From Proteromonas lacertae (Eukaryota), in contig NGBS01000318.1 of the NCBI GenBank assembly GCA_002245135.1, forward strand, positions 1 through 64,000: 64,000 nt of DNA, in the 5' to 3' direction. Within the stretch, counting starts at the first letter, position 1. The number at the start of each line of letters is the position of its first letter. The position numbers and the translations under genes are program-made. The notes beneath the pieces were generated by a model, which was not told the DNA's origin, ran no database searches, and saw only the letters and a list, made by a program, of their open reading frames with translations. Of this stretch, positions 14,955 to 33,721 are shown in pieces.

Positions 14955-15003
14955 TCCCCATAATGCTAGTAACTTAATTTTTATCATTCTTTTATTATAT
15001 TTT

Positions 15004-15870
15004 ATGTTTGGAGGTCCCTTAAAAAAACAAGCTGTTTCAATAGACACAGGTGCTATATCTAAGTCTATTACAACAATAACAAACAATTTAGGTAAAAAAA
15101 CTGATGATGATAAGACAATTAGAGAAATGTTGAAAGATATTGATGTAACAACTAACAATAATGCAGAGTCAGTTAAGAGTGTTGTTGATGTTATTGGTAA
15201 AACGAAATTAGAGTCATATGAAGATAGCATGTATGATTTATTAAGAAATATCGATGAAAAAATATCAAACGATCCAACAGCTAGCGCAATAAGTGATATA
15301 TCAACATATTTAGGTGATCCATTTACTATCAATGACTCTGTATGGAATTTTACACAGAAATTGTATAATGCATACAAAGGAGATGAAAATAATAGACTGT
15401 TAAAGAGAGTAGATGATAGATTATATATGTATTTAAATGCTGAAATTACTTCATTAACAAAATATATATATGCAAGATTTGAAGCATATCAAGATTACTT
15501 AAAAATAGATATATTAAATTATTATAAGATGAATACTAAATATGTTACTCCTGCGTTTTCAATTTCAACAAATGCAGAGAATCCTGTAATGGCAACTTTT
15601 ATTCAAAAGTTATTTGATAAATTAGATATTAGTTATGAACCAGATCCAGATAAAGACAATCAAGCATTTAGTGTTGATTTAGTATTTCAAACTAATAGTG
15701 GTAAGATTCAAACATTAGAAGTATTTCAATATCCTGGTTATACAGATTCGATTATTTTAGCACATAAAGGTGATATTCCAGCAGATTTTGAAACTAATTG
15801 TATGTTAGTGCCTCAATCAATACTACTACCCTTTAAAGATAAAATAACTGAATATGATGTAACGTATTAA
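15004..15870 (+). CDS. Viral hypothetical protein (helical N-half, possible spike or fibre)
   Basis: ATG at 15004 (MFGGPLKK). Repeated helical units with a C-terminal globular part. The function is a guess from position. Confidence 0.6.
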   Translation: MFGGPLKKQAVSIDTGAISKSITTITNNLGKKTDDDKTIREMLKDIDVTTNNNAESVKSVVDVIGKTKLESYEDSMYDLLRNIDEKISNDPTASAISDISTYLGDPFTINDSVWNFTQKLYNAYKGDENNRLLKRVDDRLYMYLNAEITSLTKYIYARFEAYQDYLKIDILNYYKMNTKYVTPAFSISTNAENPVMATFIQKLFDKLDISYEPDPDKDNQAFSVDLVFQTNSGKIQTLEVFQYPGYTDSIILAHKGDIPADFETNCMLVPQSILLPFKDKITEYDVTY

Positions 15871-15904
15871 TAATAATATAATCTTCTTTTTTCATTTTTG
15901 TTGT

Positions 15905-16585
15905 TTACTTGGGTGGTTGTTGTTGAGTTGCTACTTGTGAACTTGAAACAAATGAATTATAACCAGTGCTATTGTTATTGTATGGTACTGTTGGTGTTTG
16001 AAATGCTAATGCGACAGATTGATTAACTACTGGTTGTTGTTGTTGTAGTTGTTGTACATCTGGTATTGCTGTTGTTGGAATAGGGATATTCTTGATAAGA
16101 ACAAATGTTGAATAAATTTCAAATTTTGGTAAAACAGTATAATGTGGTGAATTGTTCTCCATTGAAGTTAAAACCATACACTGTCTAATTCTTACTACGA
16201 ATTCGTTCCATTGAAGCAAGAATGGTTGAGGATCTGAAATGATATTCTTCCATGCTGTACACTTCAACATATTATTATCATTATCCTCAGGCATAACCAC
16301 ATTTAAACCAAACTGTTGATAAGAATTCTTAAAATTAGGATCTTGTGTAAATCTTACAGCAGATTCAACACATACTTTCTTTATCGGTTCTTTAACTTGA
16401 GTATTGAAGTCAGTGAACTCTTGATTGTTGAATAACAAGTATCTAGCTGGAGTGAAAGTGAGATAGTTGGCTTTTTTTGTATCTGCCTCAATTGCTCTCA
16501 ACATGAAGCCTCTAAATTTAACATACATATACTCTGATGGATAGAAACTAATGTAATTGACACCTTTGTCGATTTTTGATGACAT
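15905..16585 (-). CDS. Viral hypothetical protein, possibly PC4-like ssDNA-binding
   Basis: 226-aa ORF. YVKFRGF...KKANYLTFTPARY loosely resembles PC4. The tail is Q-rich. Confidence 0.55.
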   Translation of the reverse strand: MSSKIDKGVNYISFYPSEYMYVKFRGFMLRAIEADTKKANYLTFTPARYLLFNNQEFTDFNTQVKEPIKKVCVESAVRFTQDPNFKNSYQQFGLNVVMPEDNDNNMLKCTAWKNIISDPQPFLLQWNEFVVRIRQCMVLTSMENNSPHYTVLPKFEIYSTFVLIKNIPIPTTAIPDVQQLQQQQPVVNQSVALAFQTPTVPYNNNSTGYNSFVSSSQVATQQQPPK

Positions 16586-16735
16586 GATTATAGGATTTTT
16601 TGAATATCCAATAAAATGATAGAATTAGGATTTTATATCCGTTTCATGCATTTTTTGATTTGAAGCTTGAAGCGCGAAATTGTTAATTAGCGGTTTTTTA
16701 GATTAATATTTTCATACCCCCATTCTTCAACATAA

Positions 16736-17161
16736 ATGGAATCAGATAGTATTTTTGTAATAGAACAGAGAGCTAAAAAACCTGTATATTTATTTATTAA
16801 AGAAATCAATGTTCTCAAAGCTTTTATTGGAACTATCTTAGGGTTAATTCAAACTGCAGCTCAAAACTATATCATTTGTAAGAATGAGGACATTACCAAA
16901 TTCAACAGTGTAGCTCAATTATTGATAGGACATATGAATAAGTATGCTTATAAGAATAGAAAACCAGTTCCAGAAACAATAGTAGAAGAAGCTCAGAATC
17001 TATTCGATTGGTTTGTAAAATTGCTTAAACAGTATGCAATTAACGCAGAGATGCCTCCTCCTAAGTATCATATCAACGAGTATGGATCAGTTATAAAAGT
17101 GTTGTTAGATGAATTAGATCTTTACACAAAAAACAAAGATAAGATAAGAGAAACCAAATAA
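16736..17161 (+). CDS. Viral hypothetical protein
   Basis: 141-aa ATG-initiated ORF in a tightly packed layout. Confidence 0.7.
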   Translation: MESDSIFVIEQRAKKPVYLFIKEINVLKAFIGTILGLIQTAAQNYIICKNEDITKFNSVAQLLIGHMNKYAYKNRKPVPETIVEEAQNLFDWFVKLLKQYAINAEMPPPKYHINEYGSVIKVLLDELDLYTKNKDKIRETK

Positions 17162-17165
17162 TTAA

Positions 17166-17720
17166 TTAAAAATCATTCACATATACTATATTTACTAATG
17201 AACTATAGAAATTGAAACATGTTTTTTCAAATTGGGTAAATAAGTATACTTTAAAATAAAGTTTCTGATTGGCTTCCAAGTGCCAATTATCTCTAAAGAA
17301 CTGATTGTACATAATTAATAGTCTTCTTATTGCACCTACTATTGTACTATAAGGAACTGATTGATTTTCTGTAAGATCTATTATTAAATCTATTTCATTA
17401 CATAATGAATCTACTTGATTTGCTGTTAAACTATTCAACGTTCTAAGACTTGGTTTGAATTTCGATAAAGATAACTTAAATAACTCTAAAGTATATTGTA
17501 TTTCTTCAATGGTAGCAATTACTCTAGGACCTTCAATACCTATTGGTAATCTATTCTCTGCATGACTTTCTAAAACATCTATAGGATCTTCATTTGAAGG
17601 AGGAGGTCTTTTATTCTCAGGATCATCTCTAATTATAAGTATTGGTGATTTAGGTTGAGGTGGAGGTGGTGGAGGTAAAGGTAATGGTATAGATTCTGTT
17701 TTTATGGGTATATTATTCAT
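17166..17720 (-). CDS. Viral hypothetical protein, Pro-rich N-terminus
   Basis: ORF convergent with 16736-17161. Confidence 0.7.
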   Translation of the reverse strand: MNNIPIKTESIPLPLPPPPPPQPKSPILIIRDDPENKRPPPSNEDPIDVLESHAENRLPIGIEGPRVIATIEEIQYTLELFKLSLSKFKPSLRTLNSLTANQVDSLCNEIDLIIDLTENQSVPYSTIVGAIRRLLIMYNQFFRDNWHLEANQKLYFKVYLFTQFEKTCFNFYSSLVNIVYVNDF

Positions 17721-17754
17721 AAACAATAAGTAAAAATAAAAAAGAAATAATTAA

Positions 17755-18288
17755 TTAATTAGTTGAAAAATCACTTAACACTTCTTCCTCTTGATTATCA
17801 AAGGGATTGCTTCCGTTGGTTTGTTTGTTTGGCTTGATTAAATGCTTTCTTTTTTTAGGATTTAAACTGTCTAATGAATCTGATATAGCAGTCATAATCT
17901 TTCTTTTAGTTGTACATATCTCTGAGCTAGCATTTTGATTCAAAATGTCTTCTAAGTCTTCGTCATTTTCCCAATCACTTAAATCTGTTTCATCTTCTTC
18001 CATATTGTAATCTTCATCATCATCATCTTCACTATCTACAACAAAACCTTTCAAGTTTCCTTCACTATCAGCATCGGATGCATTAGCATCATCTTCTTCT
18101 TCATCCTCACTATCTGTACACTCTGCTTCTCCATATAAATAATTGTAGACGTCTTCTATCTCTCTCTTTCTCTTTTTAGCACATCTTTCTTTGTCATCTC
18201 GTTTCTGCTCCTCTTTTTGCTCCTTCTCAGCATCGCTAATATCATCGTCTATAATCTGAAGAATATGAATTGTTTTTGAGTTGCTCAT
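17755..18288 (-). CDS. Viral acidic disordered protein with NLS-like motifs
   Basis: D/E tracts plus KKRKR and PKKRK. Confidence 0.7.
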   Translation of the reverse strand: MSNSKTIHILQIIDDDISDAEKEQKEEQKRDDKERCAKKRKREIEDVYNYLYGEAECTDSEDEEEDDANASDADSEGNLKGFVVDSEDDDDEDYNMEEDETDLSDWENDEDLEDILNQNASSEICTTKRKIMTAISDSLDSLNPKKRKHLIKPNKQTNGSNPFDNQEEEVLSDFSTN

Positions 18289-18339
18289 AACACAAAACAA
18301 AAATTAAAATAATAAAACGAATATATTTTTAATATTATA

Positions 18340-18702
18340 TTACATAAGTCCAATAACACGATTTTGGTTATTTATAATATTATTATTTGCTTGAGGTGGT
18401 GGTGGTGGTTGTTGCTGAACTGCTTGAGGTTGTTGAACTGGTTGTGCTGGTGGTTGACTTGCTACTTGCTTAACTATTCTAACTAACTCATTGATTGCTT
18501 CTTGAAATGAATAACCATTGATACTATTTAACATAGTTTTCACTTCAGGCGGTAACTTGTTCAATGTAGAATACAATTCTTGATCTACTTGTCTCTCTTG
18601 TTCTGTTTGAGAAGGTTGTTGCTTATATACAGGATGTTGAGCATCTAACTGTGTAGTTATACCACCTGAAAAAGTTCTTGGAGGAATTGGACCGTCTGAC
18701 AT
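18340..18702 (-). CDS. Viral Q/P-rich hypothetical protein
   Basis: ORF from MSDGPIPP. Confidence 0.65.
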   Translation of the reverse strand: MSDGPIPPRTFSGGITTQLDAQHPVYKQQPSQTEQERQVDQELYSTLNKLPPEVKTMLNSINGYSFQEAINELVRIVKQVASQPPAQPVQQPQAVQQQPPPPPQANNNIINNQNRVIGLM

Positions 18703-18762
18703 AATTATTATGGTCAATGTAATGTCAATAATGTCAATATAGTAATTATTTGTAATATTATT

Positions 18763-19233
18763 ATGGCTAAGAAAAGTAAGAAGAAATATCGCAAGTGTGT
18801 TGTAGGAAAAGGTTTCTGGGGAGATTTAAATAAAGGACTGAAAGATACTAAAGTAATATCATCAGGTTTAAGTATGATTCCAGGATGGGCTGGTAAACTT
18901 ACTTCAGGAGTTGCTAAGTTATTAGGTTATGGTCGTAGAAGGCATAGAAAGAGTAGAAAAGGTGGTTCTTCAAAATGGTCAGAACTAATTAAGAAATATG
19001 GCAAATCAGGCAATAAGTTATTAAGCATAAAAGCTGTTGGTGGACCTGATTCATACTTTAAGAAAACAACTCAAGGTAGTGGACTTTCAATAGCTACAAA
19101 ACATTGGATTAAAGGACCTGGTGGAATTTATAAAGGAAAGACAGGTTCAGGAAGACGTCGTCATAGAAAAAGTAGTCGTAGTGGTAATAATGCTCTTAAT
19201 CGTTATCCTGATAATAAGATAAGAGTAGTTTAA
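18763..19233 (+). CDS. Basic virion core protein precursor with adenain-type GxG/GG sites
   Basis: VVGKG-FW, LLGYG-RRRHRK, RKGG, QGSG and TGSG-RRRHRK; K/R-rich overall. Confidence 0.72.
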   Translation: MAKKSKKKYRKCVVGKGFWGDLNKGLKDTKVISSGLSMIPGWAGKLTSGVAKLLGYGRRRHRKSRKGGSSKWSELIKKYGKSGNKLLSIKAVGGPDSYFKKTTQGSGLSIATKHWIKGPGGIYKGKTGSGRRRHRKSSRSGNNALNRYPDNKIRVV

Positions 19234-19291
19234 GTACTTTAATTTTTTATTTTTATTCTCTGTTTTTTATTGGTTTTAATATATTAACATA

Positions 19292-19606
19292 ATGGTTTTA
19301 GGTGGTAGAAGACATAGAAGACATCGAAGAAGACATCAAGGTGGTTCTTGGAAATCAGTGTGGGGTAAGATCAAAAATGGTGCAACTAAAGCCTTTCATT
19401 GGGCTAAAGATCATAAGATAGCATCAAAGATCGCAAAAGAGTTTGGTAAAGATGGTCTAGCAGATGGATTAGAAAAGATAGGATTTGGTAGACGTAGAAG
19501 AAGACATGGAAGAAGAGGTGGAGCTAGAATGCCATTCAATGGAGGTGGTAGCAATCAACAAGCTTTACTTAATGCATACTTGAAAACAAAAGTTGCACGT
19601 ATGTAA
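19292..19606 (+). CDS. Arg-rich core protein with an adenovirus pVI-like amphipathic helix
   Basis: VLGG-RRHRRHRRRHQGG-SWKSVWGKIKNG, IGFG-RRRRR and RRGG. Confidence 0.72.
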   Translation: MVLGGRRHRRHRRRHQGGSWKSVWGKIKNGATKAFHWAKDHKIASKIAKEFGKDGLADGLEKIGFGRRRRRHGRRGGARMPFNGGGSNQQALLNAYLKTKVARM

Positions 19607-19695
19607 TTTACATTTATTAATGACATAATTACATAATATTATTATTATTATTAATATTTGTTTTTGGCGGGCTTTTAAAATTTACATATAAATAA

Positions 19696-20298
19696 ATGAG
19701 TGAATCAGAATCTGATGATTATTCTAGTGATACAAGTTCAGTCACATCAACTGAGAGTGAATTAGAAGACAAACTTCCTGAAATGAAATCAACTTCAAGA
19801 ATCGATCCTAGTGAACCAAGTGAAGAAATGATTAAACAGTTCTTAATGAAGAGTTCACCAAAGAAAGTATATAAGATGCTCACAAGTGAAGATGACGATG
19901 ATGTTAGTGAAGATAGAAAACATGGTAAACATAAGAGTAAGAGACATCGTTCAAGATCACCTATAAAGAGAAGATCAAAGAAAGATAAAGATGCTTTAGA
20001 AGCTCCAGTAAAAGGTAAAGGTAAACGTAGATCTAAAGATAGTGATTCTTTACCACCACCAAGTAGAATGACTAAAGCAGAATTACAAATTGCATTGAAA
20101 GAAGAAAGAGATAAGAATTCTAAACTAATGAAGAAATTAGAGAAAGGATCTAATCCAACAAAGAAAGAACGTAAGCCAAAAGATGTTAAAGAGGATAATA
20201 AGAAAGAAGAAGAGATAGAAGATGAAAAACCTTTAGGTAATGATATTATGGGAAGACCAATACAAGGCGAACCTATCGAGCCTATTTATGTTAAGTAA
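19696..20298 (+). CDS. Viral S/D/K/R-rich low-complexity protein
   Basis: 200-aa ORF with an acidic N-terminus, RSRSP and a short coiled coil. Confidence 0.7.
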   Translation: MSESESDDYSSDTSSVTSTESELEDKLPEMKSTSRIDPSEPSEEMIKQFLMKSSPKKVYKMLTSEDDDDVSEDRKHGKHKSKRHRSRSPIKRRSKKDKDALEAPVKGKGKRRSKDSDSLPPPSRMTKAELQIALKEERDKNSKLMKKLEKGSNPTKKERKPKDVKEDNKKEEEIEDEKPLGNDIMGRPIQGEPIEPIYVK

Positions 20299-20343
20299 TA
20301 ATTATCATAATAACTATACTATTCATATTTTGTTTGTTTAATC

Positions 20344-21549
20344 ATGGTTACTAAAACTCAGTTAAAAAAACTCTTAGAGAAGCGGAAGAAAGGTGTATCT
20401 AGAAAGAAAAGAAGAAAACATAGCTTTAAAGGTCATAACAAATACTACCAATCACTTTACAGTAAATTCTATAATGACACTACCAATGATGTTCTAAGTA
20501 AAAGAATAGGTACTAGAAACACTGAACTAGATGAAATAAAGAATATATTAGGTAAACTGAATGAGCAGAAACAACATACATCAAATACTATACCATATGA
20601 TTTAAAAATAGAAGAATTATCATCACAGCAGAAACTATTAGAGAGACAGAATGCAGTAGATCAACAACTGGCTAGTTCTCTAAGATTAGGTAATAGTATG
20701 TCAAATCCAATTGCAAGAAATTATAGAGAACTTGATGATCAACACTTATTTGGATCTTCTATTTATGCTAATTCAAATAGACCTGATTATAATGCTATAG
20801 CAAGACAACAAGCTGAAGCAAAAATGAAAATGAATCAAATTCTGAGTGATCCTGTTAATCAGATGAAGATGCAGATGCAAATGGTATAATATTAACATTC
20901 TATTATATTATTTTAGTAGAGAAATAAAAAATATAAACCTAGTTTAGTTTTTAATAACAACACAAAATCAAAATCAAAAGTAGATCCTAAAACAGTTGTT
21001 AAGGATGATAAAAAAGAAGAAGAAGAGAAGAAGGAAGAAAAAGTAGAAGAAGAAGAGGACAAGAAACAAGAAGAAGAAGAAAAGCCAGAAGTGAAGGAAG
21101 AAAAAGATAAAGAAGAAGAAGAACAACCTAAAGAAGAAGAACAACCTAAAGATGAACCTAAAGAACAACCTAAAGAAGAAGAAAAGAAAGATGAAGGACC
21201 TCCAGTAATAACTGTAGATATACAAAATATAGAAAAATTATTCAACGAAACTCTTAGATTACCTGAATTCAAATATGTAACTATGCTTATAGGAGATTTT
21301 TATTCAGTAGCAAAAACTAAATCAGTAAAAAGAATTGATTGGACAGTTATTGGTCATGAAACAGAAGAAGAAAAGAAAGAAAGAAGGAGTAAAATAATGT
21401 ATTTAATTCCTCGAGAAGATTTAGCAAAAGCAGTAATAAAAGGTCAGTCCTTCAGTGACTTCATATATGAAAGTATGGATTTAATTGATGAAGCATTTGC
21501 ACCACGTATGATAAAGAAACAAAGGAGAAGGAAGAAGAAAAATTATTAG
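20344..21549 (+). CDS. Viral hypothetical protein, probably spliced (exons 20344-20883 and 20920-21549; 389 aa)
   Basis: A GT-AG intron at 20884-20919 joins two same-frame ORFs. The downstream E/K-rich frame is open from 20920 with no ATG near its start. Confidence 0.65.
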
Positions 21550-21618
21550 TAATAATCATCATAACAACTATAACGGATCTATTTTTAGTTTTGATATTTT
21601 GTTTGTTTTTTCTTAAAA

Positions 21619-24600
21619 ATGACTGCTCCAACAAAGCGTAAGCATAAAGAAAAAGAATCAGTGGACTTTGACAATCCATCCATCTATCACAATGCGTTGA
21701 AAAGAAAATTGAAGAAAATGATTTATGATAGAGCATCTTCAAATAAGAAGGTCAAGTTAGATTTAAGTCATATGGCTAACCCAACAAGAGCAGTTGATAA
21801 AGGTAATGCTACAAATGAATTAGAGATTTACGATCCTTATACAAAGAATATGGTTAAAACATTTGGTGATGACTACGATGTAACATTTGATGATAATAGT
21901 AAAGATAAGCCAATGAATCCAAACCTCAATGCCACCAAGAACAATTACATGACTGATGAAATGAAGTATAAGTTGTACATGAGTGGTATTACTGATCAGT
22001 ATGGAAGGTATTATAGGAATATAGGTCAGTTTAATAAACCTTATTCAAATTACTATGGTGATCCTACAAACTTAACTAATATTTATCAAAATCCTTTTGG
22101 TCCTCCTAATCCTTATCAACAATTGCAACAAGGATTATATCAAGATCCAGTAACAGGTCAATGGTCTATGAGTCAGTGGAACAATCCTGCTCAGTACAAT
22201 ACTCAATCATATATAAATAGTCAGAGATGGAATAACAATAGTTTAGATAGTAACTATGAAGTAAAACAGCAATTACAGATAAAAAATGCTGCATTAGAAG
22301 ATGCAAAGAAAACAATTGAAAGAATGACTGAAGAACAACAGAAGACTTTATGGCATCATATTAATGAAACATTTAAAGGTACAACTTGGTGGGATTGGGG
22401 TACATGGGGTGTTAAATTTTTAATGTGTACTTTAGTTTTAGGTGGTATTGATATAGCATTCAAATATGTATTCCCTAATCAATTAGGTGTTCTATTATCT
22501 GGTATATTTAATATGGGTGTTAGATCAAGTGATTATTGTGCAAAGTTATTTGGTATATCTCAAGCTAATGTACAATATGCTTCATTCTTTGGATCATGGT
22601 TACCCACAACATACCAATTCATTAAAGCAGGATGGCAAGGAGGTGTAACTGGTTTAATGGATTTTGCAGTTAATCAGTTAAGAAATGTATGGAATTTCAC
22701 CAAGAACTTGTTCACTGGTTTCTTCAATTCGGTCAAGAGCGTTTGGAGCTCGATAACCGACGGCCTGCCTTGGAGCTCTGGAAGCACTGAAGATTCTGGT
22801 CCTACGGATGTTACAAAGTTATTTAGTAGTAAATATGAAACACCCCCTTCTTCAGTACCTTTAGCTTTACCAGCTCCAGAAGCTCCCCAACCTATAACAG
22901 CTCCAGATAAACAGCTGGTTGTCTACGGGGATTCAAATGCTACAAATACTACAGGTACATTAAACGGCGCAGGAAAGAAGCATGTAAGCTTTGGTCCTAA
23001 ATACGGGGGGAGCTCTGAAGCTAATCCTGTATACAACGCAAATATGGATGGAACAAATCCACCCACGGCGATTGCCGTGGGTGGATACGTCCATCCATAT
23101 TTTCTTCAAGAGTCTGCTCAACCTCCTGTAGAGGGATATGATATGGGTTATACATGGAGACACTTAGGAAGAGGTTTAGATTCAATAATGGGTAAAGGAA
23201 AGTTAGACAAGTATAGAAGACATAAACATAAACATAAGTTATTAAAGAAGCTTCCACGGAGGCATCTCTGTCATAACAAGAGATTATTAAAAAAAGGTGG
23301 TGCAAGTCTTATACCACCAGGTTATGTAACAGAACCTCCAGAACCTTCAGCTTCAAACAATGGTGTAGTAAATGTTGGTTACTATTATCCTCAAGGTAAA
23401 AATATTCAATTCTGGAATGGTTTGAGAAAACTATTTAATGCTGCAGATGCTGCACATGTAAATCAAGGACAAATGTATGAACCTTCAAGCTTGAATGATT
23501 ACAATTTAAATATGCCACAACATCCTTTCAATGAAGTTGGTTGGGGTGATATAGGATGGGGTACTATAAGAAGTTTAGATCCTAAAGCAAGAACAGAATT
23601 TGCAGCACAACTTGCAAACGATGGTGCTCAACAAGCAAGACAATTTAAACCAAAGTATTACTATGACTGGGATGAATTTCTTCACTTTCAAGATAAAGTG
23701 TATGCAGATCATTCAAGTGATCCTGATTATTATTTAAACAAAGCAACATGGAAATATAAACCTATTACGATTGATCCAACTAATGGTGCAAGTAACTTCA
23801 AGTATTTAGGTAATCCAAAATATGTTAATGAACAAGATTTTGTAACATATGATTGGGGTGATAATAAAGTAACTGATCCTTTAGCTAGATTTAATCCAGC
23901 CTTTGCTAAAATGAATGCAGAGGATATAAGAGCTGCTCTTAATCCAGGTATATCATCAAGACTAAAAGATCCTTTTCATTTAAACAAATCTGATATTGAA
24001 TACCAAGAGAAAGTTGGTTTACAGCAAGAAGTATTAAACAATGATTATACAATTGGACTTAATAATATGTATAATAACATGAAAGATAACAAATTGGATA
24101 AAGCGTACAAATGGAAAGCATATTCACAACAGCTTGGAAGAAGACTAAGATCAGATGATGAAATTAAAGAGAGAGCTGATCTTAATAGACTTCTTAGTAT
24201 TGATCCTGCTTTAGCTGAGAAAGCAAAACAATTACATGATATAGAAACATGTGAAATAGATGAAAATAGAAGAGTCATAATTCCAGATGAACAAGCATTT
24301 ATAAAGGATAACATCATTCAACATGAAAATACTCCTGAAAAAATTAATCATGAATTGAATGATAAAATGTTAGGTCATAAAGTTCCTGTTGATTGGAAGG
24401 ATGGTGATATGCAGGAAAAGATAAAAATAGGTTGGGAGTTACTTAAAAATGCCTGCAGTCAATGGAAAGAATTTGAAGGTAGTCAGTTCCAGAAGGCACT
24501 TCAATCACTGAATGAAGGTGACTTCATAGAGTTCGGTCATAACTTATACTTGTGTGTGAAGAATATTTTTAGAATTTTCCCTATCATATTTTATACATTC

Positions 24601-25866
24601 AAAAATTATTTACATGGTGGTGTCACTCCTGATATGGTTGAAGTTGATAATGCTATGCAGTATGCTAACTGTATTATAATTACATGCATAGCATTTTGGT
24701 TATGGAAGAAAGGGAAGTTAGGAAATTTTGGATTCGTGACAGTGTTATGGTTCTACATATTTGATTACTATACTATAATACAAAAGATAACTGGTAATCG
24801 TTTACCTGACATAACTACCTTAGCGAATAACAATTATGATACAGTGAGTAAAATGTTACCTACAGCACTTCAAAATTCATGGTTACCTATGCAATTCATA
24901 TACAATTGTGGTACTTCATTCTTATTCAACTCACATCCTTATGTTAAAATATTAGCAAATGCTGCACCCTTCTTTTTCAAATTTGCAAAGTTCGGTAAGT
25001 TAGATACTAAGAATGGAATTACAGGAATGATAATGTCACTACTAAGTGGAGGTAAAACAAAAGGAATGAAAGGTTTCTTAGGTAAAGTAGGTACATGGGG
25101 AACAGTACTTAGTGCCTTCGGTGCTTGTGTTGGATTGATAGTACCTAGTGCATTATCTACATTTTTAAGTACAGGAACTGTTCCTCAGAACAATCCTGTA
25201 TTCGATCCTAACAATACACTCAATACTCCAAATGGTTTATCTAACTTCGTGAGTAGTGGATTACAACTTCAGGAAATATGGCAAATAATGAAAGCATTAG
25301 GTTATGCAGGTAAAGGTAAGAATAAACTATGTTCACGAAGGATACTTTTGTCTAACATCAATAGTAAAGATGCATTATCGAACTTTGATATTGAAGAAAT
25401 TATTCAAAAAGAATTCAATGATTTTGACAAGAAGTTCAAAGGTTGTTTCTGTTGGGATGAATTGGTACTTCCTATACCTCATAAAATGGATCAGTGGGGA
25501 ATCATAATCAATACACTGACTACAAAAGCAAAACCAGATAGTGTAGGTCATTGGGTAGCTTTAGTAGTAGATAACAAAAAGAAGATGTTCATGTACTATG
25601 ATTCTTTTGGTGAGGATCCTCAACACTTGAGTAATTTCAAAGAATGTTTGAAGAAGTTTAAGAAATTTCATGAAAAACCATATCAGTTAAAAATCAATGC
25701 AGTTCAGAACCAGAACAGTAATACAAACAATTGTGGTTTTTTCGCAATCAATTTTTTGAACGATATATTAAATAGAAAAAGAACATTCAAGCAGGCAACA
25801 GATTTTAATACAGTAGTTGGTGAGAAAAGAGTAGCAATGATGAAAAAAGAGTTTGGAATAGTATAA
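21619..25866 (+). CDS. 1415-aa polyprotein-like membrane protein with a C-terminal adenain-like (clan CE) cysteine protease
   Basis: C-terminal GIIINT...GHWVAL...YYDSFG...QNQNSNTNNCGFFAINFL (His-Asp-Gln-Cys). Several hydrophobic segments and internal GxG/GG motifs. Confidence 0.88.
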   Translation: MTAPTKRKHKEKESVDFDNPSIYHNALKRKLKKMIYDRASSNKKVKLDLSHMANPTRAVDKGNATNELEIYDPYTKNMVKTFGDDYDVTFDDNSKDKPMNPNLNATKNNYMTDEMKYKLYMSGITDQYGRYYRNIGQFNKPYSNYYGDPTNLTNIYQNPFGPPNPYQQLQQGLYQDPVTGQWSMSQWNNPAQYNTQSYINSQRWNNNSLDSNYEVKQQLQIKNAALEDAKKTIERMTEEQQKTLWHHINETFKGTTWWDWGTWGVKFLMCTLVLGGIDIAFKYVFPNQLGVLLSGIFNMGVRSSDYCAKLFGISQANVQYASFFGSWLPTTYQFIKAGWQGGVTGLMDFAVNQLRNVWNFTKNLFTGFFNSVKSVWSSITDGLPWSSGSTEDSGPTDVTKLFSSKYETPPSSVPLALPAPEAPQPITAPDKQLVVYGDSNATNTTGTLNGAGKKHVSFGPKYGGSSEANPVYNANMDGTNPPTAIAVGGYVHPYFLQESAQPPVEGYDMGYTWRHLGRGLDSIMGKGKLDKYRRHKHKHKLLKKLPRRHLCHNKRLLKKGGASLIPPGYVTEPPEPSASNNGVVNVGYYYPQGKNIQFWNGLRKLFNAADAAHVNQGQMYEPSSLNDYNLNMPQHPFNEVGWGDIGWGTIRSLDPKARTEFAAQLANDGAQQARQFKPKYYYDWDEFLHFQDKVYADHSSDPDYYLNKATWKYKPITIDPTNGASNFKYLGNPKYVNEQDFVTYDWGDNKVTDPLARFNPAFAKMNAEDIRAALNPGISSRLKDPFHLNKSDIEYQEKVGLQQEVLNNDYTIGLNNMYNNMKDNKLDKAYKWKAYSQQLGRRLRSDDEIKERADLNRLLSIDPALAEKAKQLHDIETCEIDENRRVIIPDEQAFIKDNIIQHENTPEKINHELNDKMLGHKVPVDWKDGDMQEKIKIGWELLKNACSQWKEFEGSQFQKALQSLNEGDFIEFGHNLYLCVKNIFRIFPIIFYTFKNYLHGGVTPDMVEVDNAMQYANCIIITCIAFWLWKKGKLGNFGFVTVLWFYIFDYYTIIQKITGNRLPDITTLANNNYDTVSKMLPTALQNSWLPMQFIYNCGTSFLFNSHPYVKILANAAPFFFKFAKFGKLDTKNGITGMIMSLLSGGKTKGMKGFLGKVGTWGTVLSAFGACVGLIVPSALSTFLSTGTVPQNNPVFDPNNTLNTPNGLSNFVSSGLQLQEIWQIMKALGYAGKGKNKLCSRRILLSNINSKDALSNFDIEEIIQKEFNDFDKKFKGCFCWDELVLPIPHKMDQWGIIINTLTTKAKPDSVGHWVALVVDNKKKMFMYYDSFGEDPQHLSNFKECLKKFKKFHEKPYQLKINAVQNQNSNTNNCGFFAINFLNDILNRKRTFKQATDFNTVVGEKRVAMMKKEFGIV

Positions 25867-25883
25867 AGAAATTAATTAATTAA

Positions 25884-26234
25884 TTAATTTTTACTTTCTA
25901 ATTCTGTTGTTTTCTTAATTTCTTCTTCATGTTGTTTCAAAATATTGTGTAGAACAGGAACTAACTCTTCTATTGCTTTATCTAACTCTTCTTTAAGACA
26001 CTGTACAGATAATCTCTTACTCTCTAAACGATTCATTAATTCAAACACTTGTTCATCCATACCTAAATTGTATGCTTCATTGAGCTTCTTACAAGTTACT
26101 ATTATATTACCTGCTTTCTTTAATGCATTCTTATACTCCAAGCTACCATCATCTTTATGATTGATGTAAGTGCTGCACAACTCGTACCACATATCAAATG
26201 CTGCCTCTGCATTTTCTTTTAACATCATATCCAT
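25884..26234 (-). CDS. Viral hypothetical helical protein
   Basis: 116-aa ATG-initiated ORF. Confidence 0.65.
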   Translation of the reverse strand: MDMMLKENAEAAFDMWYELCSTYINHKDDGSLEYKNALKKAGNIIVTCKKLNEAYNLGMDEQVFELMNRLESKRLSVQCLKEELDKAIEELVPVLHNILKQHEEEIKKTTELESKN

Positions 26235-26335
26235 CGTTATTTGATACCTATATAAACGAAAAATAAAAGAAATACCGAATATAGCCGTTTCACGATCTTT
26301 AGCATTTTTTCGTTACACGAATTTTTTGAGAATTC

Positions 26336-26737
26336 ATGAAGTTAGGTTACAGTATCAAAGGCCAGAATTTATTTATATTTGAAAAGCGAGCCAATGATCA
26401 AAGATGGACTATTTTCATCCCAGCTGAAGCCAAGAAATACATATGGGGTAAATCAAATCATCATACACCATTAGTAATCAACTATGGAGCTGCATTAAAA
26501 GACAAATACAATTCAACTACTCCTACAATAAAAACCCTTTGGTTGCCAGATTTTTATGAGATCGATGTTCCATCAAATGTCAAACCTGTTATTGTATCTT
26601 CTATAGATAAGCAGTTTCTACATTTCAATATTTTATACATAGGAAGAGGTCAAACAAAACCAACACCACCCAAAAAACAAGAAGAAGAAGATGTTGGTGT
26701 AGAAAGTTTATTAGAACAACTTAAAATATCTAATTAA
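26336..26737 (+). CDS. Viral hypothetical protein
   Basis: 133-aa ORF whose stop abuts the integrase stop. Confidence 0.65.
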   Translation: MKLGYSIKGQNLFIFEKRANDQRWTIFIPAEAKKYIWGKSNHHTPLVINYGAALKDKYNSTTPTIKTLWLPDFYEIDVPSNVKPVIVSSIDKQFLHFNILYIGRGQTKPTPPKKQEEEDVGVESLLEQLKISN

Positions 26738-28030
26738 TTATACAATTGTATCATCACCTTTTTTGATTCTGGGTCTTTCAAGAATACGTCTAAAATGAGT
26801 TTCAGGATCTCTTCTAGCAACTAATTGTAACTCATAATGTTTGAATCTATATCTAGATACATCAGGATCCCAATTACCGTTTATATCTCCTAATACATAA
26901 GAGTACCTGTTTTTATGTCTAATACGATATATCTTATCTGACCAATAAGTTCCTTTATCCATTTTTCTTCTTTGTTCATGAAACCTAACTAAATCTCCAA
27001 CTTGAAATTTTGTTTTTAATCTTTGTTCATTATTGAAATTGTATTTAACTGATTCCATTAACATTCTGTTTTGTAGTTTAGGACTATTGTATACTTCGTT
27101 AGGTGTATAATCTCTCAAACTTGATAAAGGTTTGTTATTATAATCATAAACAGTTTCTTGTACAATTTGATTGAAACGTGACAACCATCTCTGATCAATG
27201 ATTTCTCTTCTATCGTTTCTATCTATATTAGCTTGAAACTCTGGTGCATCTATACCTAAATCTATTAAATGTTTATATAATAATTTCTTTACAAGACTTA
27301 CAGATCTTTCCAATACCATTTCTATTCTATGTTCTGATGGCATCTTTTGAAAGAATGTAATTCCTTCTTGATCTAATAATGGTTTGATTGCATTGAAACT
27401 ATTTTGCATATCACACAAGACACTTACTACACGTCTTTTAGATACTACTTGAGAACCATCTTCATTTGTTTTAAAATACCATGCTCTAAAAGCACTTTCA
27501 ATACTTGGTCCTTTTTCATCACGTAATGGGATTGCCCATACTTTTCTGGAATTCATTTCTATCAAATATAAGTAAGGATGATAAGGTAAAAAGTAAACAA
27601 CATCCATTTGGAAGTATCCAGGCTTCTTGATACTTGCAAAAGGTAAATCTTGATTGTATTTAAAATCTACTATTTGACGACCAGGCTTTCTTCTTAGATA
27701 CTCTCTAACTACATCATAAGGTGGTGGAACATCATTAAGTTCTGCTGCTTCTTGTGTTAGTTTAATAAATTGTTTTTCACTTAAATAGTAATACTTATCA
27801 TAAAGTCTATCTAGATATTCTCTATATTCATCGATCTGTCTGGATATTTCATCATTTTCATATGGATTTGGTCTTGGATTATTCTGTATTGACGGTGGTG
27901 CATTGTTAAAATTCCTCGCATAATTTTGCTCATCTCTTGAGTCAACATGTCTATAGCCTGGTGGCAACTCTTGAGCTGTATCTGGATTTGGGTAAGAGTA
28001 AGACTTATTATAAAAATAATTAGCAAGCAT
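26738..28030 (-). CDS. Retroviral-type (rve, DDE) integrase of Polinton type
   Basis: FQMD, SRKVWAIPL, VLCD, LERS, YNNKP..L...TP, KFQVGDLVR, WSDKIYRI and YELQ. Confidence 0.9.
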   Translation of the reverse strand: MLANYFYNKSYSYPNPDTAQELPPGYRHVDSRDEQNYARNFNNAPPSIQNNPRPNPYENDEISRQIDEYREYLDRLYDKYYYLSEKQFIKLTQEAAELNDVPPPYDVVREYLRRKPGRQIVDFKYNQDLPFASIKKPGYFQMDVVYFLPYHPYLYLIEMNSRKVWAIPLRDEKGPSIESAFRAWYFKTNEDGSQVVSKRRVVSVLCDMQNSFNAIKPLLDQEGITFFQKMPSEHRIEMVLERSVSLVKKLLYKHLIDLGIDAPEFQANIDRNDRREIIDQRWLSRFNQIVQETVYDYNNKPLSSLRDYTPNEVYNSPKLQNRMLMESVKYNFNNEQRLKTKFQVGDLVRFHEQRRKMDKGTYWSDKIYRIRHKNRYSYVLGDINGNWDPDVSRYRFKHYELQLVARRDPETHFRRILERPRIKKGDDTIV

Positions 28031-28089
28031 AAGAAGTAAAACACAAAAGTAAAAGCATACACTAATATATTAAATATATCCATGTTATT

Positions 28090-31000
28090 CTAATTAAAGA
28101 CATTATTATAATTATCGTACATATTTCTAGCAGCTTCACTTTCATTTGGATCACGATTCAATAAGTATGGAACTGAGCTGATTCTAGTTAAATAACATCT
28201 TTTAATATCAAATATTGTAAATGCTAATTTAGGTACACGAACTGTATACAATACTTGTTTTGCACTTCTGAAACTGTACTGATCTACATATACTTTTTGT
28301 AAATCTCTACTATCTAAAATATTAGTGTAATAATCATAATCACATGTCTTTACTCTATAACCTTTAGATACACCTTTTGCTCTTGAATCAGATTTAAACA
28401 AGTGTATAGGTCCATCCACTCTCTGTTTTTCATAAGCATACATCTTTGCTTTCAATCCACAGAATCTTGTTATTGTGTATAACTGATCACTTTTGTTCTC
28501 TTCCATTTTAAGTAAGTTAAGTTCACCTGTTCTTTGATAGTTTTGATATCTGATACCTCTTTGCTTTAGATAATCACAATTAATATTACCAGTATCCATA
28601 CAACCTTGAATTGTTAAATCATCAGCAATATCTCTGTAAAAGTCTTTTGTAGCAACTCTGAAGATAAAAGAATCTGTATCTGTCATCAGTAAAGTAAGAC
28701 CATCTCTATATTTTCTGTATAATTGTCCATACCAAAACTTTGCCATTAAATACTTTGATTGACAGAGAATAGCCATTCCAATATAGCTTGGTTTATCAAT
28801 TGCACATTTATACTTCTTAAACTTACACACTCTTAAGTCACATCCATCAATTGATACAAAACCTGTAAAGTATGGATTACTTGTACACTTTAAGAACTGT
28901 TCTTCACTATTCACCAACTTACTTCTACATCTATTCTCTGTATTTTCACATGTCTTACCATATGCACTGTTAAGGATTAGTTTAAACGTATCTGCTTCAG
29001 CATCTCTATGTGCTGACTTTGCAGCCTTCCTTAATAGATGACACTGCATCACGAAATCATAAGCATAAGCTGTTTCACAAAAACTAATCACTCTCCATAC
29101 TTTGTTTACTTTATAACCTAACTTCACAGCATAGTTCAGATATTGATAATGAACAACATAGTGATACTTCCTACTCAAATCGCATATTATTCTTGGAGTG
29201 TTATTCTTCAATTCTCCATTCTTATCCACCATACCTAATTCTATAGCCCATTGCTTCTGTTCTTGTGACAAGTCTCTAAAGTATATCATCTTTCTCTCAG
29301 GGAATAAAGGATACTCTGAAAATCCACAACGATCTGGTGGATCTATATCAACTTCTAATATATAACCTCTACTCTCTGGATCTTTCCACAACTTCTGATC
29401 TTCTGGATTTGATGAATGCATTATATCTTCATAAGGTTTCATTTTCTTAATGACATCTATATAGATTTCTGGTTTCTCCCATCTGAAATCTTTATATGGT
29501 AACTTCATTGATGCCATTGTAGAAGGATACAGAGAATTATAATCCACATACATAATATAGGATTCTCTTTTTGGTGGGATTGCATGAAGATCTTCAAAGA
29601 ATGGTGGATCCATATAATGGTTCTTGGCTTCAGCCTTTCTCATTGATCCAATCATTGAAATACCTCCAATCAATCCTTTTCGAATGAAATCATACTTGTC
29701 TTGATCAGCTAACAATTCAATCTTTACATTACACCTTCTAAGAAATATAGACCATGCTAAACCTGGACAACTAACATGCCAACATGGATCTAATATAAAA
29801 TGCTTAAACACTACATTTCTGAAATGGTCAAACACACTTGTAAGAGTTAATACATCCATTGCTAAATAGAATAAGTTATACTCCATTAGATCATTCATCT
29901 CCAATAACTTCCATAATGCTTGACAGGAATCATAAATATCTTGTGGTATTTCTTCTTCCTGTTTCAATTTAGACTTGAATGCTTCTCTTGGTGGTAACTC
30001 TTTTGTATTGTATAACTTATCTATATGATCAACATATTCGTAAGGGAAGTGACCTTTCTGCAATCCCCATTTCATCATGAAATCATTGACTGTCCAATCA
30101 TGGTCTTTTAAACACTTTTGTATCTTTGTATCTTCTCTTACATACTGGTATACAGGATGGAATAACTTTTCATATTCACCACCTGATTCAGCTTCTATCT
30201 TTAAGGATTGAACTATACTATCTAGTGATGAAGACATAAACTGAAAGCTATCAATGAAGTGTAGTTTGTTAAACTTTATCATTAAGAACTTATTGTCAGT
30301 CTTTAATAGAACTGATAACTTTGATCTATACTTTCTTTTATTATTATTCATTGGCTGAGTTGTTATTGGTTGAGATGTAACTATGTTTCCCATTTCTTCT
30401 TCTAAACCAAGATCTTCAGCTGTTCTAGGTGATAAGTATTCTTCTCTACTATGTAACATATAATATAACTCATTAAATGCTTCTTCATTGTTGGGATCGT
30501 TTTCATCTACTATTTCAATTGTATTTGGTGGTTCTATTGGTAATGGTATTTCTTCTTCATCTTCATAATCTTCTTGAGTTGATATATCTACTAATCTATC
30601 TTCTTCTTCTTCCTCTTCTTGTTTCTTTTCTTCTTCAATACCTCTATTATATTCAGTTAATCTTTCATCAACAGTTGTTGTAGTATCTGGTATTGGTATT
30701 GATGGTTGTGGTGGTTGTTGTATTGGTTGTTGTTGTTGTAATGATACATTCCACTCTGCTTCCATTTCTTTATCTAATTTTGATAATCCACGGATAATGA
30801 AGTTATTATCATAGTTCTTACTATTGTGTGCAATACAAGGTATTTGCAGATGTTGTAAAGAACAATGCCAATTACAGTTACTACATAATGTAGCAAGATA
30901 TTTTCCAGTAAAATGGTCATGGTGTCTTGTGCGTCTTTTATTTTTATCATTTTCATCAAATGGAGTGTTACACCACATACACTTTGTTATTTTTCTATGA

Positions 31001-32946
31001 ATTGGTATATATGTACTTTCATCCAAAGGCTTTAACTCTCCACTCTTATATTCTTCATATTTCGATAATACATACTCTTCTATTTCTACAAACTTTCTGA
31101 CCAATTCCATTTCCAAGTCTTCAGGATCTTGTTGTGGACCAAGTTTACCAAAGAAAGTTTCTTCACTGATAATATCTGGATATCTTGAACTTATATGTAT
31201 GCACCAACTACTTAACACATGTCTACTAAATGCACCTTTTGCACCAGGTATTGCTTGTGAAGGATCTATTGGTACTTGTATTACTTCTGTATCCCAATAT
31301 AAGACCACTGGAATCATTTGCATGAATTTGAAGTTATGGAATTCCAAGAAAGTATCAGGTGGTGGGAATTGACGAATGACTCCTCTCTGTAATTGACAAC
31401 TGGTTGAATTATGTAGTTTGAATGCTTGATCTGTTGATAAGGTACAAAAGCAGTATGGACATCTAGTGTAGTAATTATGACAACGCTTATTGTATGGTGC
31501 AAGGAAGGCTTCTAACTTTGTTATTGTCATGAAGTGTTCTTTATAAAACAGTATGTTGACATGTGGGTAGTGTAGCATCTTATCTATTGAAGTTCCATAC
31601 AATGGTATTGGTTCTTTATCCACAATTGTAAATATATTGATAGTGACATGATTCATTTGTTCAAACACTTCTATTCTACCACTATCAGTGATAGGATCAA
31701 TAGGAAACTTCAAACATGTTATATCCATTCTATAAACATACTCCTTATACTTCATAGCTCTATTTCTATGATCCTTAAACTCCATATGATGTAATCCTGC
31801 TGCAACACTATATATAAAACACATACTTTCAGCTTCCTTACTATAATTGGTTAAGTTGATTAAACACTTTCTTCTTACTAAACTTTCAGGTAATAATATA
31901 CTGACATTGTCTGTAGCTGATCCAGTACTTAATGATGTTCTCATCATAATCATTTCCACTAGAGCTATATGTTTATACTTCAAATCACTTCTTTCTGTAT
32001 TGAATATATTATTGAAATCTCTTCCCATTATTCTATTCAATTTTTGGCCAACACTTCCTAATTCACTTACAGTAACTGACTCTGGATTAGTCTCATAGGT
32101 TTTGTAACATAATGGATCAGTTCCTTCAATATCTATAACATTGGATCCAACATATGCAACTCTGATTCTGAATTGAACTTTGGCATGTTCAAAATGAGTT
32201 GTATTGAAATAGTTTCTCAATGCTTTCATATACTCTGATCTAGGATCTGTAACTTGTAACCATATAGCTTCATACTCTCTACATAATGGATCATCACTCC
32301 AATCATGAGAATAAGTTTCTTCATACCTTTCACTTGAACCATGAACAACATCTAAAACATATCTACGAAGATCAAATGGCATTTCTTTTAATCTTTCAGG
32401 ATGATTCTCAACAACATCTAAAGCTAACATTGCTTCTCTTCTAACTCTTTGATCTTCTTCACTAACAGGAGCATCTGGATGTGTTTCTTGTGGTGGTGGT
32501 GGTTGATCATCGTCTACAAGTGGAGATAGTGTTGGAGTAATCTCTTCAGGAGGAGTATCTGGTAATTGACTATCTGGTATCTCAGTTATTCTTTGTATCT
32601 TTGGTGGTGGTTCTTCAATTACAACTGATGAACTCGTTCTCTGATTAACTGGTGTAACATAACCTGGTTGAGCTGTAGTTGTTGAAGATGTTTGAGGTGG
32701 TGGTGGTGGTGCTGAACCTGTTGAAGGTGGAGGCATGATCCCTCCTGCTCCTCCATATACTGGATAAGGTGGTGGATAATACATTGGTGGAGGTGTTGGA
32801 GGAACATAATAAGGTTGGAACCAAGGATTGAAATAATTAAGAGGCATCATGGGTGGGTTACCTGGAGCTGTACCTTGTTGTGGCTGTTGTGAACTTGGTT
32901 GATTATAACCATACGGATTATAACCATAAGGATATCCTGGATACAT
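28090..32946 (-). CDS. polB: Protein-primed family B DNA polymerase with a terminal-protein region, vOTU-like, C2H2 and EndoVII/HNH-like domains
   Basis: Exonuclease motifs YWDTE, HNSKNYD and YLAMD. Polymerase motifs YVDYNSLYP, KLILNSAYGK, TDTDS and KMY. Also CFIYSV...HF (OTU-like), CPYC...H...C and CMWC...HHDHFTGKY...CSNCN. Confidence 0.96.
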   Translation of the reverse strand: MYPGYPYGYNPYGYNQPSSQQPQQGTAPGNPPMMPLNYFNPWFQPYYVPPTPPPMYYPPPYPVYGGAGGIMPPPSTGSAPPPPPQTSSTTTAQPGYVTPVNQRTSSSVVIEEPPPKIQRITEIPDSQLPDTPPEEITPTLSPLVDDDQPPPPQETHPDAPVSEEDQRVRREAMLALDVVENHPERLKEMPFDLRRYVLDVVHGSSERYEETYSHDWSDDPLCREYEAIWLQVTDPRSEYMKALRNYFNTTHFEHAKVQFRIRVAYVGSNVIDIEGTDPLCYKTYETNPESVTVSELGSVGQKLNRIMGRDFNNIFNTERSDLKYKHIALVEMIMMRTSLSTGSATDNVSILLPESLVRRKCLINLTNYSKEAESMCFIYSVAAGLHHMEFKDHRNRAMKYKEYVYRMDITCLKFPIDPITDSGRIEVFEQMNHVTINIFTIVDKEPIPLYGTSIDKMLHYPHVNILFYKEHFMTITKLEAFLAPYNKRCHNYYTRCPYCFCTLSTDQAFKLHNSTSCQLQRGVIRQFPPPDTFLEFHNFKFMQMIPVVLYWDTEVIQVPIDPSQAIPGAKGAFSRHVLSSWCIHISSRYPDIISEETFFGKLGPQQDPEDLEMELVRKFVEIEEYVLSKYEEYKSGELKPLDESTYIPIHRKITKCMWCNTPFDENDKNKRRTRHHDHFTGKYLATLCSNCNWHCSLQHLQIPCIAHNSKNYDNNFIIRGLSKLDKEMEAEWNVSLQQQQPIQQPPQPSIPIPDTTTTVDERLTEYNRGIEEEKKQEEEEEEDRLVDISTQEDYEDEEEIPLPIEPPNTIEIVDENDPNNEEAFNELYYMLHSREEYLSPRTAEDLGLEEEMGNIVTSQPITTQPMNNNKRKYRSKLSVLLKTDNKFLMIKFNKLHFIDSFQFMSSSLDSIVQSLKIEAESGGEYEKLFHPVYQYVREDTKIQKCLKDHDWTVNDFMMKWGLQKGHFPYEYVDHIDKLYNTKELPPREAFKSKLKQEEEIPQDIYDSCQALWKLLEMNDLMEYNLFYLAMDVLTLTSVFDHFRNVVFKHFILDPCWHVSCPGLAWSIFLRRCNVKIELLADQDKYDFIRKGLIGGISMIGSMRKAEAKNHYMDPPFFEDLHAIPPKRESYIMYVDYNSLYPSTMASMKLPYKDFRWEKPEIYIDVIKKMKPYEDIMHSSNPEDQKLWKDPESRGYILEVDIDPPDRCGFSEYPLFPERKMIYFRDLSQEQKQWAIELGMVDKNGELKNNTPRIICDLSRKYHYVVHYQYLNYAVKLGYKVNKVWRVISFCETAYAYDFVMQCHLLRKAAKSAHRDAEADTFKLILNSAYGKTCENTENRCRSKLVNSEEQFLKCTSNPYFTGFVSIDGCDLRVCKFKKYKCAIDKPSYIGMAILCQSKYLMAKFWYGQLYRKYRDGLTLLMTDTDSFIFRVATKDFYRDIADDLTIQGCMDTGNINCDYLKQRGIRYQNYQRTGELNLLKMEENKSDQLYTITRFCGLKAKMYAYEKQRVDGPIHLFKSDSRAKGVSKGYRVKTCDYDYYTNILDSRDLQKVYVDQYSFRSAKQVLYTVRVPKLAFTIFDIKRCYLTRISSVPYLLNRDPNESEAARNMYDNYNNVFN

Positions 32947-33142
32947 AATATAACCTAAAAATTCTTAGAACTAGAAGTTAATAAGATATATACTTGATTA
33001 TTGGCTACGACGTTTAGCCATCCAATAATATTGTTAATTCAAATGCTAGTTTGATTTGAGCAACTCCCCAATAAGAAAAAAGAAGTTTCAAAAATATATT
33101 CGTTTTAATTCCATTTCGTTACAAAATCTTAAAATCGTCAAA

Positions 33143-33721
33143 ATGCGTCAATCAGTTTATCAATATGATTTAGATCAAGTGTACAACCATACTACTGTAT
33201 GGCTAAAATGTTTGGAAGACATATCGACCAAGATTCAAAAAGATGATATTCATTTTGTAAGTTTATTGAAAATAGGTGTAGCACAAGATCTCTCAGACTA
33301 CAATCTAATTTTATTTAAAGCTTTTATAGAAGACTGTGCAGAAAAGATAAAAGATCTAATCCGAGAGTTAGGAGTCGTCGTTAGATATAGAGATGAGTTA
33401 CAAACGTATACCAAAAGATTACTAGTACTCAATAAGCTTTGTTGGATACGTGATCGTATTAGAATGTGGTGGGGTATATTAAAAATGCATGCTCAAAATT
33501 GGATTATGGAACAGCTTCAAAATTTAGGTGAGGATTTAATTAGAAAGGATCAAGAGATTATCGAAGAAGTAATTCATTGGCAATACATGTGTGAGCATCC
33601 AGAGGAAGCAGCCAAAGAAAAAGTATTGAAAGATATGATGGAAAAGAGATATAAGGTTCAACCAGGGATTGTGGATCCAAGAGTTAGAAGGATGCTGAAT
33701 CTACCTGATGATTTAGAATAA
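33143..33721 (+). CDS. Viral hypothetical helical protein
   Basis: ATG at 33143 (MRQSVY), divergent from polB. Confidence 0.7.
   Translation: MRQSVYQYDLDQVYNHTTVWLKCLEDISTKIQKDDIHFVSLLKIGVAQDLSDYNLILFKAFIEDCAEKIKDLIRELGVVVRYRDELQTYTKRLLVLNKLCWIRDRIRMWWGILKMHAQNWIMEQLQNLGEDLIRKDQEIIEEVIHWQYMCEHPEEAAKEKVLKDMMEKRYKVQPGIVDPRVRRMLNLPDDLE

Follow-up and report, generated by a model that had tools for sequence, protein, structure and literature searches.

A Ulp1-type protease at the end of a long, likely self-processing precursor in a Polinton-type element of Proteromonas lacertae

Introduction

The proteases of Polintons are assumed to mature virions, and the parts of the literature available to us describe experimental substrates only for mavirus, adomavirus/adenovirus and African swine fever virus (ASFV). 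Adenain, the adenovirus enzyme, is activated by DNA and a peptide cofactor. In the protease-scaffold precursor of herpesviruses and in retroviral Gag-Pro, the protease enters the particle within a structural precursor and is released from it by self-cleavage; their protease folds and virus lineages are unrelated to those considered here, and they serve as an analogy only. Here we describe a 1415-residue protein, referred to as P0001, which is encoded in a Polinton-type element of Proteromonas lacertae and ends in a cysteine protease domain. The element lies in a window of 64,000 nucleotides, the whole stretch that was analyzed (assembly GCA_002245135.1, contig NGBS01000318.1, positions 1 to 64,000 of the forward strand). 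We consider it likely, with a probability of roughly 0.6, that this clan CE protease cuts its own chain of ~1230 residues at GG↓X and GX↓G (the arrow marks the cut) into predicted virion core and membrane-contacting parts.

The mavirus protease MVP cuts at the same two motifs, left two GxG sites uncut, and is also implicated in the cutting of MV13 at GK↓G (Born et al. 2018; PMC6048507); these authors quote the adenain motifs as (M/I/L/N/Q)xGG↓x and xGx↓G. MVP offers a parallel: it belongs to clan CE, comes from a small double-jelly-roll virus and is packaged in virions. Unlike the P0001 protease, which ends a chain holding candidate sites, it was expressed on its own and cleaves the capsid at its C-terminus. 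The Ulp1-type protease of ASFV, pS273R, cuts the structural polyproteins pp220 and pp62 at Gly-Gly-X into core proteins (PMC10308890) and is, by sequence, the closest viral solved structure to the P0001 protease. However, pS273R is separate from its substrates and cuts in trans (PMC10308890), whereas the P0001 protease is fused, and the N-terminal 1200 residues of P0001 showed no homology beyond six close relatives among 1.84 billion representatives, and none to pp220 or pp62. Adenain and the core precursors of adenoviruses and adomaviruses share with our element the protease clan, the Gly motifs and small basic proteins with Gly motifs (10.1101/341131, PMC6048507), but the P0001 protease falls below the cut-off of the adenain family C5, is not stand-alone and does not follow the rule for position P4 at its own junction.

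Papain-like proteases joined to structural proteins have a precedent in Buck et al. (2024): potential hexon-adenain fusions in adintoviruses ("Hexain") and, in viruses of the bidna class, a Cah-like protein that carries a papain-like domain ("Cahain") (PMC11071296). These involve other partners and other groups, and the passages on them do not describe internal sites or self-processing. A precursor of the P0001 type is not described in the portions available to us of the literature on Polinton proteases, fusions and polyproteins (including PMC11161782, 10.1101/2019.12.13.875310, 10.64898/2026.10.13.758929, PMC4409740, PMC4642659 and PMC12220804), whose supplementary genome maps may show long protease open reading frames (ORFs). 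The Gossevirus (GKS) group of Polinton-like viruses is known to have a cysteine protease (PMC7805220). P0001 is best read as a self-processing protease precursor, a variant of the already known Gly-motif maturation.

Results

Re-reading of the sequence confirmed that the ORF runs from ATG to TAA through 1415 codons with a single stop and an unbroken frame, in a window that contains no N, and that the protease lies at its C-terminal end. The codons of His1311 (25549) and Cys1372 (25732) are exactly where the initial annotation had placed them. Asp1328 and Gln1365 complete the catalytic set, and all four residues are invariant in the seven aligned proteins. Adenain as the precise family was not supported. 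The domain scores above the Pfam cut-off for Ulp1/C48 (29.5 versus 20.7 bits) and below that for adenain C5 (18.9 versus 21.3 bits), and a profile of six related domains ranked ChlaDub1 (1e-6), ASFV pS273R (1.6e-6) and SENP1 (1.5e-5) ahead of adenain (0.26) among solved structures in the PDB. Consequently, clan CE, Ulp1-type, is the right label. The AlphaFold2 models of residues 861–1415 and 1–394 were of low confidence (predicted local distance difference test, pLDDT, 38) and gave fold matches from the protease part only; in a Foldseek search with a model at this mean pLDDT, all listed PDB matches belong to clan CE (best E 5e-4). The proteases of P0001, P0002 and P0041 do not have the stand-alone form of about 200 residues that is typical of adenain.

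The fusion is real and is conserved in relatives. In the search for full-length homologs, one of 4726 candidates passed: P0002 (1354 residues, 43% identity, 100% coverage), which is fused like P0001 and has a second full-length member in its cluster. Five of 568 candidates among shorter proteins matched the protease. One of them, the partial P0006, runs upstream from the protease into the hydrophobic domain, and P0008, P0009 and P0010 carry unrelated extensions. A further protein, P0041 (1068 residues), is homologous to P0001 from about residue 528 onward. Thus the arrangement is kept at 36–49% aligned identity in P0002/P0003 and P0041, and also in P0006, and all of these continue from the hydrophobic domain into the protease. 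Across the junction, four sequences keep both the reading frame and the amino acids, and their insertions and deletions are in frame. We found no sister with a stop before the protease; the sole candidate, P0007 (193 residues), shares 98% identity with the end of P0041 and was set aside as a fragment of it. A phmmer search of residues 20–1219 against 1.84 billion representatives returned six matches, all of them close relatives of the same family. P0023, P0026 and P0021 overlap at 97–100% and were counted as one lineage. The P0008/P0017 cluster has a sister protease with an unrelated 250-residue extension, in which the Gly motifs LGAG and KGG occur about 70 residues before the core.

The P0041 lineage has the N-terminal module as a separate 496-residue protein (P0022/P0033), homologous to residues 13–384 of P0001 and recurring at 495–496 residues in five of seven cluster members; both P0033 and P0041 list a 6493-nt contig, which suggests that the two are neighbors. 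This separate ORF could be taken to mean that two genes were joined in our copy by the chance loss of a stop codon or by faulty assembly. We regard such an artifact as highly improbable and largely refuted, because full-length fused homologs come from independent contigs and the split is located about 700 residues N-terminal of the protease, and P0041 still has its protease fused.

We also considered that the protease might be expressed separately from Met1224 as a 192-residue protein, by its own promoter, by splicing, or through an upstream stop made by polyadenylation as in Blastocystis. P0001, P0002, P0006 and P0041 do each have a Met a few residues ahead of the junction. In addition, 12 of 22 element genes have, 24–72 nt 3' of the stop (within at most 80 nt), a TGTTTGTT-like motif of the type by which 3' ends are marked in Blastocystis (PMC4159000). 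The motif is strongly avoided in the coding strand, with only 4 occurrences in 21.9 kb, a contrast that is inflated because intergenic DNA is T-rich. The element may therefore use a 3'-end signal of this kind, and its host could plausibly be a protist similar to Blastocystis. However, the sense strand of the ORF contains a single TGTTTGTT match (one mismatch, at 23373) and none near the junction; six matches with two mismatches lie at 25072–25446. The conservation of frame and residues across the junction, and the 14 of 21 relatives that have no Met in the 40 residues before the core, also argue against a separate start. In these 14, the protease must be translated within a long chain. Overall, separate expression appears quite improbable.

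A scan with the protease alignment yielded 49 metagenome loci and one viral locus. In IMG/VR, the full alignment, the protease alone and the alignment of the major capsid protein (MCP) gave no match, and the protease alignment gave the one viral locus; a phage collection gave no match. A quick tree was built from 47 domains, 9 of 56 having been left out for want of an intact motif. The P0001 protease falls in a group of 31 rows, of which 27 have long N-terminal extensions, four are open at the 5' end and none is stand-alone; the 12 stand-alone proteases are all separated from it by a weak branch (77), and another four rows, whose extensions are shorter, fall outside the group. The fused protease is therefore not the isolated oddity or unusual strategy that had been supposed, since long precursors are the rule among the nearest relatives. 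Nine larger mapped loci resemble Polinton-like viruses, with an ATPase, capsid-sized ORFs and, in some, PolB. The extensions in the related loci are unrelated in sequence to that of P0001 and typically have a basic start followed by a charged coiled coil.

Sequence just before the protease core points to processing. The junction sample consisted of the best 30 of 50 loci and seven proteins, of which 29 had at least 32 residues before the core and eight were dropped; removal of domains at 80% identity or more left 21. A Gly-x-Gly occurs within 32 residues before the core in 25 of the 29, and in 18 of the 21 non-redundant sequences. Shuffles of the same segments gave a mean of 4.5 and a maximum of 10 (0/2000 reached 18), and the upstream background is 11 Gly-x-Gly in 9138 residues. 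This is not a selection effect, because the loci were picked by core motifs only. The gap between the motif and the core varies from 3 to 20 residues, as expected of a linker, and position P4 is M/I/L/N/Q in 11 of 18 cases against a background of 28% (p = 0.004). Where an ORF has an extra domain C-terminal to the protease, a Gly-x-Gly follows the protease in all four cases (three distinct).

These counts bear on another explanation, in which the protease stays on the hydrophobic domain or the whole chain, tethered to a membrane, cuts its own chain rarely or not at all, and has core proteins or ubiquitin-like conjugates of the host as its substrates in trans. It draws on the conserved hydrophobic segments directly upstream of the protease, on the best PDB sequence matches, which are deubiquitinase and deSUMOylase enzymes, one named "membrane thiol protease", and on P0041, which has no Gly-x-Gly at this junction. 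Nevertheless, the motif is present there in P0001, P0002, P0006 and 18 of 21 relatives, and most environmental relatives have charged coiled-coil rather than hydrophobic extensions. We therefore consider tethering unlikely; it would be compatible with cuts at 561 and 1001 and in this respect partly overlaps with self-processing.

Within P0001, the annotated composition was borne out: a basic start resembling a nuclear localization signal (residues 1–45, 29% K/R), an N/Q/Y tract (95–215, 40%), a charged helical stretch (216–250), Kyte-Doolittle peaks at 267–285, 976–994 and 1161–1179, and an amphipathic segment at 355–372. The N-terminal module thus combines the basic start and the tract with a predicted coiled coil and hydrophobic and Trp-rich amphipathic helices. 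It matched no family in Pfam, PHROG, the ESM Atlas or profile searches, and the ESM Atlas gave no usable match for residues 1–400 or 860–1235. PHROG tape-measure and tail matches to the Trp-rich helix (E 0.004–0.2) were taken as compositional.

All six Gly motifs listed in the initial annotation, LNGAG, KYGG, IMGKG, KKGG, LSGG and YAGKG, are present (at residues 448, 461, 523, 558, 1142 and 1229), and only some are conserved as candidate sites. In KKGG↓A (560), KGG is kept in all four covering homologs. A site absent from that list, LHGG↓V (1000), keeps its GG in all three covering homologs and also in P0041. The background for a motif within three residues is 1.8%. The 1068 residues of P0041 hold only four GG/GxG motifs, of which one aligns with site 560 and another with site 1000. 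These two sites alone are kept in all lineages. For IMGK↓G, three of four lineages have a counterpart: a GxG-K stands before the basic stretch in P0023/P0026, and in P0002 it is shifted by about eight residues. YAGK↓G is likewise kept in three of four, with GxG in P0001, P0002 and P0006 and none in P0041. LNGAG, KYGG and LSGG were rejected as conserved sites, being kept in 0/2, 0/2 and 0/1 aligned homologs, respectively; LSGG is absent from P0041 too, and P0023 has a GAG in the linker region of LNGAG where the alignment is unsure. Comparison of the protease junctions in the wider group lends support to self-processing, as originally proposed, and three of the listed motifs fall away as sites. 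The basic peptide between the first two conserved sites has 38–41% K/R and an isoelectric point of 11.5.

The two small basic proteins encoded upstream of the precursor gene are related to each other, carry Gly motifs around an amphipathic, Trp-containing segment and are candidate core or membrane-active proteins. The layout basic-GxG-amphipathic-G[YFML]G-basic was found in both and in five small ORFs of related loci, which were chosen by that layout. They resemble the class of membrane-active core proteins that Buck et al. call "Macc" (PMC11071296). A profile of the seven small core-like proteins gave no match to P0001, and we therefore do not claim a pVI/pX-like domain inside the precursor.

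In L007:2271-4868, L019, L020 and L021:2-982, a Gly-x-Gly, an amphipathic helix and a His/Cys domain come after the protease. L001, L003 (L003:7218-7763) and L004 have a domain of similar appearance as a separate gene, with weak LRAT/DUF5920 matches and with a Gly-x-Gly and a basic tail at its end.

The element is a Polinton/Maverick, with PolB, a packaging ATPase, terminal inverted repeats and a target duplication (Table 1). ATATAT flanks both ends, probably as a target duplication of 6 bp; since the flanks are palindromic, the ends cannot be placed exactly. PolB (1618 residues) has a Pro/Tyr/Gln-rich N-terminus, a long acidic insertion and a weak endonuclease VII match (E 0.007). The probable integrase is a 430-residue ORF with D,D,E-like motifs found by eye and no relevant Pfam match. 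The capsid genes are probable assignments. The putative MCP is a conserved 482-residue ORF with five homologs at 45–68% and a weak match to a syntenic ORF of L009; Pfam and PHROG scans of the element proteins gave no profile match for double or single jelly-roll capsid proteins. Blastocystis viruses have been reported with unrecognisable virion proteins (PMC8502044). A GSG at the MCP C-terminus was dropped as a cleavage site, as one of five homologs does not have it.

Beyond the element, Pfam identifies AT-rich eukaryotic genes (kinases, kinesin, SNAP, Piezo), in which we read introns of about 20–30 nt. Protein kinase fragments adjoin both ends (7569-8532, minus strand; 34161-34493, plus strand), and a direct repeat of 93–94% lies outside them (6500-6603 and 34550-34655). 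Inside, an inverted repeat of 87 nt (8744-8830 / 10232-10318, 90%) brackets two short ORFs near the left end, and three 27-nt direct repeats (33771-33870) lie just inside the right terminal repeat. On the plus strand, 20881-21549 is a probable spliced gene, with an ATG, a 36-nt GT..AG intron and a 209-codon Glu/Lys-rich open frame, which overlaps the end of ORF 20344-20889.

Table 1. Features of the element and of the P0001 precursor, in window coordinates.
Feature	Position	Strand	Remarks
Complete Polinton-type element	8652..34139	.	25,488 bp, ends AGT...ACT, 108-bp perfect terminal inverted repeat
Putative minor capsid	11594-12562	+	size and gene order
Putative major capsid (MCP)	12593-14041	+	size, gene order, one weak match (8e-5)
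Packaging ATPase	14106-14954	+	blastp 1e-43 to ATPases adjoining related proteases; PHROG 6e-7
Small basic protein; candidate core protein and trans substrate	18763..19233	+	basic-GxG-amphipathic-LGYG-basic layout
Second small basic protein; candidate trans substrate	19292..19606	+	layout like that of 18763..19233
Protease precursor ORF (P0001)	21619..25866	+	4248 nt, 1415 aa, about 161 kDa; full-length homolog P0002
N-terminal module, aa 1-390	21619..22788	+	68% identity to P0002 (aa 1-250); P0033/P0022 36% (aa 13-384)
Variable linker, aa 391-520	22789..23178	+	13% identity to P0002; holds non-conserved LNGAG, KYGG
Basic His/Lys/Arg peptide, about 35 aa	23185..23304	+	flanked by the candidate sites IMGK↓G (523-527) and KKGG↓A (558-562)
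Acidic middle domain, aa 562-1001, about 50 kDa	23302..24621	+	ends at candidate site LHGG↓V; 31-40% identity to P0002, 20-40% to P0041
Hydrophobic helix-rich domain, aa 1002-1232, about 25 kDa	24622..25314	+	ends at candidate site YAGK↓G; 45% identity to P0002, 35% to P0041
Clan CE (Ulp1-type) cysteine protease domain	25315..25866	+	H1311-D1328-Q1365-C1372; PF02902 E 8e-7
Putative retroviral-like integrase	26738-28030	-	weak PHROG transposase match E 0.0098 and motif reading
Protein-primed PolB	28090-32946	-	PF03175 E 2.7e-21

Discussion

In the scheme that we propose for P0001, the precursor would be made as a whole chain and would enter the assembling particle by its basic, coiled-coil N-terminal part. 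The protease would then cut after G561 and G1001, the best sites, and probably after K526 and K1232. The predicted products are the N-terminal module, a 35-residue basic peptide of DNA-binding type, an acidic domain of 50 kDa, a hydrophobic domain of 25 kDa and, at 21 kDa, the protease; the last would also trim the two small basic proteins. Roles as a DNA-binding peptide and as scaffold-like and membrane-contacting domains are predicted for these products. We count it in favor of this scheme, in which the N-terminal module would be a product of its own, that one lineage encodes this module as a separate protein.

Several observations weigh against it. GG/GxG motifs are no more frequent in P0001 than its Gly content predicts (13 observed, 14.4 expected), and the list of six motifs is by itself no evidence. 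Between residues 528 and 1232, 19 of 50 glycines are kept in both P0002 and P0041; because glycines are often conserved anyway, the two conserved Gly pairs are modest evidence alone. Residue P4 at the protease junction is Y in P0001 and R in P0002, outside the M/I/L/N/Q set. P0041 has no Gly-x-Gly before the basic peptide or before the protease, and its inclusion brings the junction count to 18/22. The relatives share ancestry, so that the counts of junctions and extensions are not independent events, and the group of 31 is supported by a value of 88 (unstarred) in the Shimodaira-Hasegawa-like approximate likelihood ratio test (SH-aLRT) on a quick tree. Finally, the predicted products match no known virion protein in Pfam, PHROG or profile searches.

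A broader view, which we put forward tentatively and hold to be somewhat doubtful, is that an entire lineage among the Polinton-like viruses builds its particles from a self-cleaving protease polyprotein that frees exchangeable cargo modules. The protease would reach the capsid as part of a basic chain of coiled-coil, scaffold-like character and would release itself at Gly-x-Gly. The cargo might be a DNA-condensing peptide, membrane-penetrating helices or an LRAT-like hydrolase, and P0001 would represent the most complex version, which yields five products, two of them domains in contact with membranes.

With the protease and its predicted substrates in one chain, expression of one gene is enough to test maturation of the Polinton type, and no particles are needed. 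Should self-processing of P0001 hold true, this lineage of viruses would have a polyprotein strategy that works in cis, and a set of long coiled-coil ORFs that lack annotation in environmental Polinton-like viruses would be explained. Candidates for genome-condensing and membrane-entry proteins would also emerge.

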